Positions 942 through 22,640 of a stretch of DNA of 32,000 bases are shown here, piece by piece; position 1 is the first letter of the stretch; every line of letters starts with the position of its first letter. The stretch is from contig JANQNC010000001.1 in NCBI GenBank assembly GCA_028279745.1, positions 1,020,001 through 1,052,000 of the forward strand. The letters run 5' to 3'. The notes under the pieces were generated by a model that worked only from the letters and a program-made list of their open reading frames with translations, had not been told where the DNA came from and searched no databases. Source of the DNA: Candidatus Nanoarchaeia archaeon. Its GTDB lineage: Archaea > Nanobdellota > Nanobdellia > Woesearchaeales > JANQNC01. The translations under genes and the position numbers were made by a program.

Positions 942-1089
942 TGAGCTGGAGGGGACTTTCAACGCACCGCGTTGCAAGCTGCGAACACGGTGAGCATGTT
1001 TGAACCCCCGACCACTGGCTCACTTAGGAGCCGTTGTTTGAAACGGGGCCATATAAGACCAGCGCTCCACCAGACTAAGCTACCAGCTC
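942..1089 (-). tRNA. tRNA-Ile, anticodon UAU, with two introns (31 nt after position 37; 43 nt at the 3' side of the T-loop)
   Basis: The minus strand reads GAGCTGG TA GCTT AGTCTGGTG GAGC G CTGGT CTTATA [intron 1051..1021] A GCCAG TGGTC GGGGG TTCAAAC [intron 997..955] CCCCT CCAGCTC A. The acceptor stem is a perfect 7 bp and the exons sum to 74 nt. Intron borders were set by eye to restore the cloverleaf. Confidence 0.8.
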
Positions 1090-8024: not shown

Positions 8025-8036
8025 ATGCCCCCGCCG
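8025..8036. repeat. Direct repeat copy 2 (ATGCCCCCGCCG), overlapping the 3' acceptor end of tRNA-Glu
   Basis: An exact match to 5489..5500. Positions 8027..8033 are the acceptor 3' strand and 8026 is the discriminator base. Confidence 0.6.
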
Positions 8037-8146
8037 GGACTTTCGACATCACTAACGTTGAAAGCTACGAACGTCAGTGAGTATGTTCGAACCCGAGTCC
8101 CCAGATCGAAAATCTGGGATGATTGGCCGGACTACACCACAGGGGC
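8026..8146 (-). tRNA. tRNA-Glu, anticodon UUC, with one 46-nt intron at the 3' side of the T-loop
   Basis: The minus strand reads GCCCCTG TG GTGT AGTCCGGCCAA TCAT C CCAGA TTTTCGA TCTGG GGAC TCGGG TTCGAAC [intron 8084..8039] CCCGG CGGGGGC A. The GGTGTAGTCCGGCCAATCAT block is the conserved archaeal tRNA-Glu D-arm. Exons sum to 75 nt. Confidence 0.8.
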
Positions 8147-12259: not shown

Positions 12260-12389
12260 GGGCCCGTGGCTCAATGGTAGAGCGCTGCCCTTGCACATGC
12301 AGAAATGCATTCAAGTAAGGCAGAGGTTTCGGGTTCAAATCGGATACACAAAAAAGAGGTGTGGTCCGCTGAAAGTCCCGACGGGTCCA
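12260..12389 (+). tRNA. tRNA-Ala, anticodon UGC, in the 16S-23S spacer, with two introns (about 22 nt after position 37; about 36 nt at the 3' side of the T-loop)
   Basis: The sequence reads GGGCCCG TG GCTC AATGGTA GAGC G CTGCC CTTGCA [intron about 12296..12317] A GGCAG AGGTT TCGGG TTCAAAT [intron about 12341..12376] CCCGA CGGGTCC A. The G3:U70 alanine identity pair is present. Exons sum to 72 nt. Confidence 0.85.
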
Positions 12390-21738: not shown

Positions 21739-22470
21739 ATGGCAAAAAGACTAACTCGGCAAGAAATTAATGAAATCAATAAACTGATTGAAAAAGGGTT
21801 TTCTTTGAATAAAATAAGAGATGCCACTGGAAAATCAAAAACTACAGTTTATTATCACTTTAGACGATTTAAAGGGCCTACAGTTAAACCCATCACACTA
21901 AAATCTCATGATGAGGAACTAATTGGAGAGTTTATGGGTTTATTTGCAGGAGATGGTTGTTTGTATAAGACAAAAAATTATATTTATAGAGCTTATCTTT
22001 ACTTTAACATTATTGAGAAAGCTTTTGTTGATGAACTAATAAGTGAGGTCTTAATTAAACTATTTGGTAAAAAGCCAATGGTATTTAGAAAGGAGAACAG
22101 ATTAAACTTATGTTATTATTCTAAGAATATTCATGAGTTCGTTAAAGAATATCTGATTTGGGATAAGAGTTCAAGAAAAACATACTCTGTTAGATTGGCC
22201 AAAGAAAAACACACTTTTGAGTTTATGGTTGGATTTTTGAGAGGTTCCGTAGATAGTGATGGTTATTTCTCTAAGAATAGAATAAGTTTTGCTACTGTTT
22301 CTGAAGGGTTGATGAAAAACATTTCAAATTATCTATCTGAATTAAACATTTTACATTCTGTTAGGTTGTACAAAGAGAAAAGAGAGAATCGAAAAGACAT
22401 TTATCATATAACAATTTCTAAAAAAGATCATAAAAGATTTGTTAGTCTAATTAATCCCAGAAATAAGTAA
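21739..22470 (+). CDS. Free-standing double-motif LAGLIDADG homing endonuclease with an N-terminal helix-turn-helix domain
   Basis: Motif 1 is LIGEFMGLFAGDGCL. Motif 2 is FMVGFLRGSVDSDGYF, about 100 aa later. The N-terminal HTH-like segment is LNKIRDATGKSKTTVYYHFRRF. The gene is not embedded in an intron or an intein host. Confidence 0.8.
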   Translation: MAKRLTRQEINEINKLIEKGFSLNKIRDATGKSKTTVYYHFRRFKGPTVKPITLKSHDEELIGEFMGLFAGDGCLYKTKNYIYRAYLYFNIIEKAFVDELISEVLIKLFGKKPMVFRKENRLNLCYYSKNIHEFVKEYLIWDKSSRKTYSVRLAKEKHTFEFMVGFLRGSVDSDGYFSKNRISFATVSEGLMKNISNYLSELNILHSVRLYKEKRENRKDIYHITISKKDHKRFVSLINPRNK

Positions 22471-22479
22471 AAGGCTAAA

Positions 22480-22617
22480 TGCGCCGGCCGGGATTCGAAT
22501 TTCCGGATGTCTAGCCTTAGGACATCTCCCGGATATACGGCTTGGAAGGCCGCAGTCATTTACGGCACGTAAAGTGTCATAACTCAACTTCCCGTGTAGC
22601 CATTAGACCACCGGCGC
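22480..22617 (-). tRNA. tRNA-Gly, anticodon UCC, with two non-canonical introns (39 nt in the D-arm; 28 nt between the T-stem and T-loop)
   Basis: The minus strand reads GCGCCGG TG GTCT AATGGCT A [intron 22596..22558] GAC T GCGGC CTTCCAA GCCGT ATAT CCGGG [intron 22527..22500] TTCGAAT CCCGG CCGGCGC A. Exons sum to 71 nt and closely match the conserved archaeal tRNA-Gly sequence. The anticodon loop is uninterrupted. Confidence 0.75.
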
Positions 22618-22640
22618 GCATTTAGAAAAACTGGCAGTTT

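Follow-up and report, generated by a model that had tools for sequence, protein, structure and literature searches.

Three tRNA genes of different specificity are interrupted at the same place in the T-loop, and the question is whether their inserts are functional introns and, if so, whether they descend from one another. The genes lie in a window of 32,000 nucleotides (the whole stretch analyzed here: positions 1,020,001 to 1,052,000 of contig JANQNC010000001.1, assembly GCA_028279745.1) of a Candidatus Nanoarchaeia archaeon, whose genome is complete, 1.30 Mb in size, 35.6% GC, and Woesearchaeota-like. We observed that tRNA-Ile(UAU), tRNA-Glu(UUC), and tRNA-Ala(UGC) of the window each carry an intron at site 59/60. 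In our reading, to which we assign a probability of roughly 0.87, these are archaeal introns of the bulge-helix-bulge (BHB) type; those of tRNA-Ile and tRNA-Glu form, together with the intron of a tRNA-Arg(UCG) gene elsewhere in the genome, a paralogous family (family A) copied between tRNA genes, and the Ala intron occupies the same site independently of them.

Predicted splice junctions of the T-loop introns

The genes escape conventional detection. Run on the raw sequence, with or without its -i option, ARAGORN called none of the three genes and no tRNA at all in the window; the Rfam scan of the window returned the rRNA operon and one weak partial tRNA match at 12260-12337, within tRNA-Ala, and the unspliced tRNA-Ile gene reaches just 16.5 bits with the Rfam tRNA model. 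We therefore scanned for BHB geometry, defined as a 4-bp central helix, 3-nucleotide bulges cut after the second base, and flanking helices, removed the candidates, and ran ARAGORN again, upon which the spliced Ile(tat), Glu(ttc), Arg(tcg), and Ala(tgc) sequences were called as canonical tRNAs. The genes and introns are as follows (genome coordinates are marked as such).

Window 942..1089, minus strand: tRNA-Ile(UAU), two introns; with both removed, called by ARAGORN as Ile (tat), 74 nt spliced.
Window 1021..1051, minus strand: anticodon-loop intron 37/38 of tRNA-Ile, 31 nt; BHB filter passed, with tRNA-Ile obtained once both introns are excised.
Window 956..998, minus strand: T-loop intron 59/60 of tRNA-Ile, 43 nt, family A.
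Window 8026..8146, minus strand: tRNA-Glu(UUC); 75 nt spliced, called by ARAGORN as Glu (ttc).
Window 8040..8085, minus strand: T-loop intron 59/60 of tRNA-Glu, 46 nt, family A.
Window 12260..12389, plus strand: tRNA-Ala(UGC), two introns, in the 16S-23S spacer; the double splice is called by ARAGORN as Ala (tgc), with G3:U70.
Window 12296..12317, plus strand: anticodon-loop intron of tRNA-Ala, 22 nt; identified by the BHB filter and splice.
Window 12340..12375, plus strand: T-loop intron 59/60 of tRNA-Ala, 36 nt, outside family A.
Genome 227816..227772: T-loop intron 59/60 of tRNA-Arg(UCG), the third family A copy.

All three junctions of the window form the BHB motif, with a common layout: the outer helix is formed by the T-stem, YGAA of the intron pairs with UUCR (54-57) of the T-loop, the 5' bulge consists of A58-A59 and the first intron base, and the 3' bulge consists of AG of the intron and U60. 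In tRNA-Ile, the outer helix is GGGGG/CCCCU, the central helix is UUCA/UGAA, the bulges are AA/C and AG/U (the slash marking the cut), and the inner helix runs on as a long hairpin. The Glu junction has a UUCG/CGAA central helix and the same bulges, AA/C and AG/U. The Ala junction has a UUCA/UGAA central helix, bulges AA/U and AG/U, and an inner helix shifted by one extra C. The Ile and Glu junctions pass a strict hBHBh' filter, and that of Ala is off by the one extra inner-helix base. The initial annotation, which had been right in having the three tRNAs interrupted at one T-loop site and had placed the inserts correctly to within one base, left the site between 59/60 and 60/61; the geometry and splicing assign it to 59/60.

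The same geometry accounts for the common ending of the introns. As had been noted, GAAAG does stand at the end of all three introns, directly before U60 and the 3' strand of the T-stem; the six letters GAAAGT resolve into GAA of the central helix, which pairs with UUC of the T-loop, AG of the 3' bulge, and U60. Across 41 genomes of the order, G000 among them, the pattern GGTTCRAA-N15-45-YGAAAGTCC was matched about 75 times, in 25 genomes, compared with 2 matches for a reversed control. Since the tail is dictated by the BHB and also stands on unrelated 59/60 introns, it reflects a structural constraint and, contrary to the first interpretation, is no mark of common descent.

As for the splicing machinery, the genome encodes one EndA endonuclease of 177 aa (genome 760383-760937, minus strand) with N- and C-terminal domains (PF01974, 99.5 bits; PF02778, 46 bits), the relatives of which are annotated as Woesearchaeota, Nanoarchaeota, or Nanobdellota. 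Over residues 30-177 its alignment to the M. jannaschii alpha4 enzyme (1a79) is gap-free, it lacks the 6-residue insert seen in the catalytic subunit of N. equitans, and no second (beta) subunit was found in the genome with PF01974, PF02778, NF007085, jackhmmer, or phmmer --max. Judged by its sequence, this single enzyme is alpha4-like. The suggestion that a broad-specificity EndA must be present for such non-canonical introns is thus not borne out: broad specificity is no precondition where junctions are strict BHBs, as those of Ile and Glu are, the Ala junction being one base off. RtcB is also encoded (574.6 bits). In the proposed course of splicing, the T-stem would serve as the outer helix of the pre-tRNA and UUCR and intron YGAA as its 4-bp central helix, the rest of the intron would fold as a hairpin that supplies the inner helix, EndA would cut in both bulges, and RtcB would join the exons. 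Within the region genome 758907-762167, a 336-aa open reading frame (ORF) lies next to the EndA gene and divergent from it; its HxHxDH motif suggests an RNase Z-type metallo-beta-lactamase, in which case a single intergenic region would serve two tRNA-processing genes.

The anticodon region of tRNA-Ile lies at window 1052-1056 and reads UAU. This anticodon is unusual in archaeal tRNA-Ile, the AUA codon normally being decoded by a tRNA with an agmatidine-modified CAU.

Kinship of the introns

With the constrained tail removed, the Ile and Glu introns are identical in 29 of 40 columns (z = 7.3), a score equaled by none of 1,000 shuffles, which upholds the homology initially proposed for this pair. 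Within the genome, family A occupies the 59/60 sites of Ile(UAU), Glu(UUC), and Arg(UCG), with alignment z-scores of 7 to 12; the Glu intron is 74% identical to that of Ile and 87% identical to that of Arg(UCG). Identity among the introns is 73 to 87%, compared with 53 to 62% among the mature host tRNAs, and the introns are thus more alike than the exons that they interrupt. This similarity pattern is what copying between non-orthologous tRNA genes would leave behind. The idea that the intron spread between tRNA genes accordingly stands for Ile and Glu and falls for Ala: with the tail removed, the Ala intron aligns to those of Ile, Glu, and Arg with z-scores of -0.2 to 0.1 and has only YGAAAG/U in common with them, so it is no member of the family, although it had been listed as a related copy. 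It would represent an independent arrival at 59/60, with a common ending set by the BHB. Kinship between the Ala and Asp introns was also considered, and the likeness is weak (z = 2.4, 28 of 1,000 shuffles as good), so that we claim no family for them.

The hairpin within the Ile and Glu introns is preserved through paired changes, as first noted, and among the three family A sequences of the genome 5 pairs are altered on both sides. The structure can be followed further. A covariance model of the family A T-arm and intron was searched against 151 genomes of the order (among them G000, as well as two unpublished genomes, G120 and G131, on neither of which any specific claim rests) and matched 67 of them at E <= 0.001; these matches are mostly unrelated 59/60 introns, and true members were recognized by ACTCACTG(N)CGTT.G.. 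instead. By this pattern, family A extends to other families of the order, where the tRNAs that carry it at 59/60 are different ones:

Genome G058: tRNA-Arg(UCG) and tRNA-Glu(CUC).
Genome G071: tRNA-Thr(CGU).
Genome G007: tRNA-Arg(GCG).
Genomes G147, G002, and G139: undecoded multi-intron tRNAs.
Metagenome: two more contigs.

In the family alignment (10 members from 8 genomes), covariation links exon base 57 to its partner in the intron in 9 of the 10 members (GC in 5, AU in 4, and one mismatch), in agreement with the proposal that the RNA structure is under selection. Pair counts for the structure gave 90% and 89% of cells paired in two tallies, and 89% in the 10-sequence alignment compares with 32 to 53% in controls with slid partners. 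The tRNA-Glu(UUC) of G121 carries an unrelated intron at 59/60, showing that this site is reused by different sequences.

Several points weigh against the interpretation of these inserts as a BHB intron family: (i) the splice junctions at 59/60 are deduced from BHB geometry; (ii) minimum free energy folding of the isolated T-arm segments of Glu and Arg(UCG) does not give the BHB as the single best structure, while the same procedure does give it for Ile, Ala, Gln, and Arg(UCU); (iii) the Ala junction is irregular by one base in its inner helix; and (iv) the member from G002 has an A-C mismatch in the central helix.

The alternative that survives best, though we consider it improbable, is that the family A intron is retained for a function of its own RNA after excision, for example as a guide or protein-binding small RNA, on the model of the C/D-box RNA of archaeal tRNA-Trp introns. 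It would explain why, over family-level divergence, the 10-sequence alignment shows hardly any variation in the 5' half of the intron, ACUCACUG.CGUUCGUAGCUUUC, while the 3' half changes. Against it, the family alignment contains no conserved C (RUGAUGA) or D (CUGA) boxes, GUGAUG and CUGA being found in the Glu copy only; no Rfam family matches; and complementarity to the organism's own rRNA extends to at most 8 nt, as in shuffles, for which reason the guide-RNA idea was rejected. The family core is moreover found in reverse orientation in a tRNA-Ser(GGA) intron and recurs at the edges of DNA insertions outside tRNAs, which a DNA-level signal fits better. Less probable still is that the similarity is convergent, any insert at 59/60 having to pair with UUCR and form a hairpin, with no need for common descent. 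This account holds for Ala, whose z-scores near zero leave only the YGAAAG tail, and dozens of unrelated 59/60 introns carry the same tail; for Ile, Glu, and Arg(UCG), however, it is refuted by the shuffles and by 29 to 41 identical columns, which include loop and 5'-strand bases free of any BHB constraint. Decay of the loci into tRNA pseudogenes with unspliced inserts is hardly credible, since, despite the failure of standard tRNA finders on Ile, Glu, and Ala, removal of the inserts gives canonical cloverleafs, these are the sole genes detected for their anticodons in the complete genome (neither ARAGORN nor Rfam found intron-less copies of the three isoacceptors), tRNA-Ala sits in the rRNA operon, exon and intron covary, and the same layout recurs in many genomes of the order.

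No group I or group II intron model of Rfam matched in the window or the fetched loci; the inserts are just 36 to 46 nt long. An Rfam E-value search of 13 loci gave nothing but tRNA matches. An exact-match search of metagenome contigs returned no intron-less allele of the tRNA-Ile T-arm, a result that carries no weight either way.

The family A core outside the 59/60 sites

The intron family which we favor is not confined to the T-loop. In tRNA-Phe(GAA), the anticodon-loop intron opens with 26 nt that almost match the Arg(UCG) T-loop intron, which places family A at two tRNA positions within one genome. Its splice sites are ambiguous, combining either a strict BHB with a non-canonical anticodon arm or a canonical tRNA with a relaxed motif; in the gene (genome 841496-841609), the anticodon loop CTGAAGA is followed by the family A-like insert and then by a second CTGAAA.

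The most conserved part of the family is a core, CTCACTGACGTTCG, which is invariant or nearly so over the 10 members from 8 genomes. With at most one mismatch it has 6 copies in the genome, compared with 0.15 in shuffles: one in the Glu intron, one reversed in the anticodon-loop intron of tRNA-Ser(GGA), one at genome 981892, and three in a longer GC-rich element.

Window 8068..8081, minus strand: core CTCACTGACGTTCG in the Glu T-loop intron.
Genome 995419-995550, 1199952-1200020, and ~673137-673201: longer GC-rich element, 70-130 nt, with the core.

The longer element has the core at all three sites and opens with a hairpin, CAGCYGGTTACGCTCRGCTGG, at 995419-995550 and 1199952-1200020, where it lies just past the start codon of a protein gene and is followed by a slightly different second ribosome site and start codon; the copy at ~673137-673201 lies within a 46-codon ORF. 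Beginning with the same hairpin, the element also fills 100-nt T-loop introns in tRNA-Met (70476), a Trp-like tRNA (578338), and a tRNA at 918023. In six other genomes of the order, the hairpin either lies in T-loop introns or separates an intact tRNA gene from a second copy of its 5' end. The element has no Rfam match. The core copy at genome 981892 lies in a GC-rich segment of about 190 nt (genome 981850-982043), upstream of a tRNA-Met, in which the 14-nt core is present without a mismatch. The segment has neither an Rfam match nor an ORF, and may represent a tRNA with extensive interruptions or some other structured RNA.

In other genomes, small inserts carry the core near one end, a few bases in from the edge. 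In G071, it occurs at two protein-gene starts, just past the start codon, with a duplicated start region in which the ribosome site and start codon come a second time; the RpoL-like orthologue in the source genome has an ordinary start and no insert, an empty orthologous site. In G023, a tRNA-Met has the core at the 5' margin of its 37/38 intron; in G081, it is beside a duplicated tRNA 3' end; and in metagenome contigs, it is found in hairpin loops or between short direct repeats.

The presence of the conserved core CTCACTG(N)CGTTCGTA at insert edges outside 59/60 suggests spread at the level of DNA. A bolder version, in which family A introns would be domesticated copies of a small DNA-level mobile insert whose conserved end, CTCACTG(N)CGTTCGTA, is set in from one edge by a few bases, is tentative, and we rate its chances as somewhat below even; as the origin of family A, such an insert is plausible but unproven. 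If it is right, three things would follow: (i) tRNA "intron transposition" in the order would be the survivable landing of a mini-element in tRNA loops; (ii) only inserts able to form a BHB would persist there; and (iii) the long-unknown mechanism of intron gain would acquire a concrete, testable agent. Recurrence of the core at insertion edges with duplicated gene ends offers a handle on the agent that moves these sequences.

A Y1 transposase (IS200/IS605) was considered as the mobilizing enzyme and rejected, none being present in the genome. The genome has three LAGLIDADG ORFs, each beside a multi-intron tRNA gene, none of which ORFs could be tied to family A. One lies in the window (21739-22470, plus strand, 243 aa, LAGLIDADG_3), and its stop abuts the 3' end of a tRNA-Gly(UCC)-like gene (22481-22620, minus strand) that has inserts in the D region and at about 53/54 and is missed by ARAGORN; the other two are near genome 1135169 and 1168834.

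The tRNA inventory and known intron families

Interruption at 59/60 is common in this genome. ARAGORN alone finds 15 tRNAs, and BHB splicing brings to light at least 11 with 59/60 introns: Ile-UAU, Ile-GAU, Glu, Ala, Asp, Gln, Met, Arg-UCG, Arg-UCU, Pro-UGG, and one called as Leu-UAG. Three further 59/60 introns are seen by motif. The splice scan took in one- and two-intron combinations, and the inventory is incomplete to that extent, undecoded tRNA loci including those at genome 369035, 578232, 917854, and 981850; a scan of GC islands for structured RNAs was too noisy for use. Among individual loci, tRNA-Pro(UGG) (genome 517478-517580) has a 40-nt 59/60 intron, so that its intron-less ARAGORN call is wrong at the 3' end, and a 59/60-type junction lies in an undecoded gene at genome 369027-369068, just upstream of tRNA-Thr(GGU). 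C/D-box-like motifs, GCGAUGAGG ... CCGAUGAUA ... CUGA, are present in the anticodon-loop introns of tRNA-Met(CAU) and the Trp-like tRNA (genome 70400-70460 and 578270-578330) and recall the box C/D guide RNA carried by the tRNA-Trp introns of euryarchaea. Most tRNAs of this organism escape tRNA finders, and the annotation of such lineages needs BHB-aware splicing.

Non-canonical 59/60 introns have a precedent among DPANN archaea in the tRNA-Cys of ARMAN-2, as noted by Kaneta et al. (2018, PMC5829648). The ARMAN-2 case involves a relaxed hBH motif and an epsilon2 EndA with a specific loop, in contrast to the strict or nearly strict hBHBh' junctions and alpha4-like EndA found here. That study reports alpha4-type EndAs in DPANN genomes, one Woesearchaeota genome among them, which it links to increased disruption of tRNA genes, together with many disrupted tRNA genes and incomplete tRNA predictions, a combination that our genome shares; the part of it that was searched describes no intron families or shared intron sequences. 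Our full-text literature search likewise yielded no description of intron families in Woesearchaeota or other DPANN.

The closest parallel is provided by the Thermoproteales, in which similar introns occur in different tRNAs at canonical and non-canonical sites (Fujishima et al. 2010, summarized in PMC4090602) and in which intron gain is held to be of unknown mechanism, presumably a DNA-level process (PMC4090602). Family A resembles those families in that near-identical introns sit in different isoacceptors, are more alike than their hosts, and are limited by the BHB in the sites they can occupy, and in that copies are found at canonical as well as non-canonical positions (the Phe intron, with its ambiguous splice sites, and the 37/38 intron of tRNA-Met in G023). 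It differs from them in several respects: (i) the host is a low-GC DPANN archaeon of the Woesearchaeota type and not a member of the Crenarchaeota; (ii) splicing would depend on a single alpha4-like EndA, compared with the (alpha-beta)2 enzyme with a Crenarchaea-specific loop of the Thermoproteales; and (iii) most non-canonical introns found here are at 59/60, and copies of the family core are also found beyond tRNA genes. To the question of how introns are acquired by the tRNA genes of archaea, family A adds a second, phylogenetically distant case of intron families common to unrelated tRNAs: it is the "intron transposition" pattern of the Thermoproteales, now in a new lineage.
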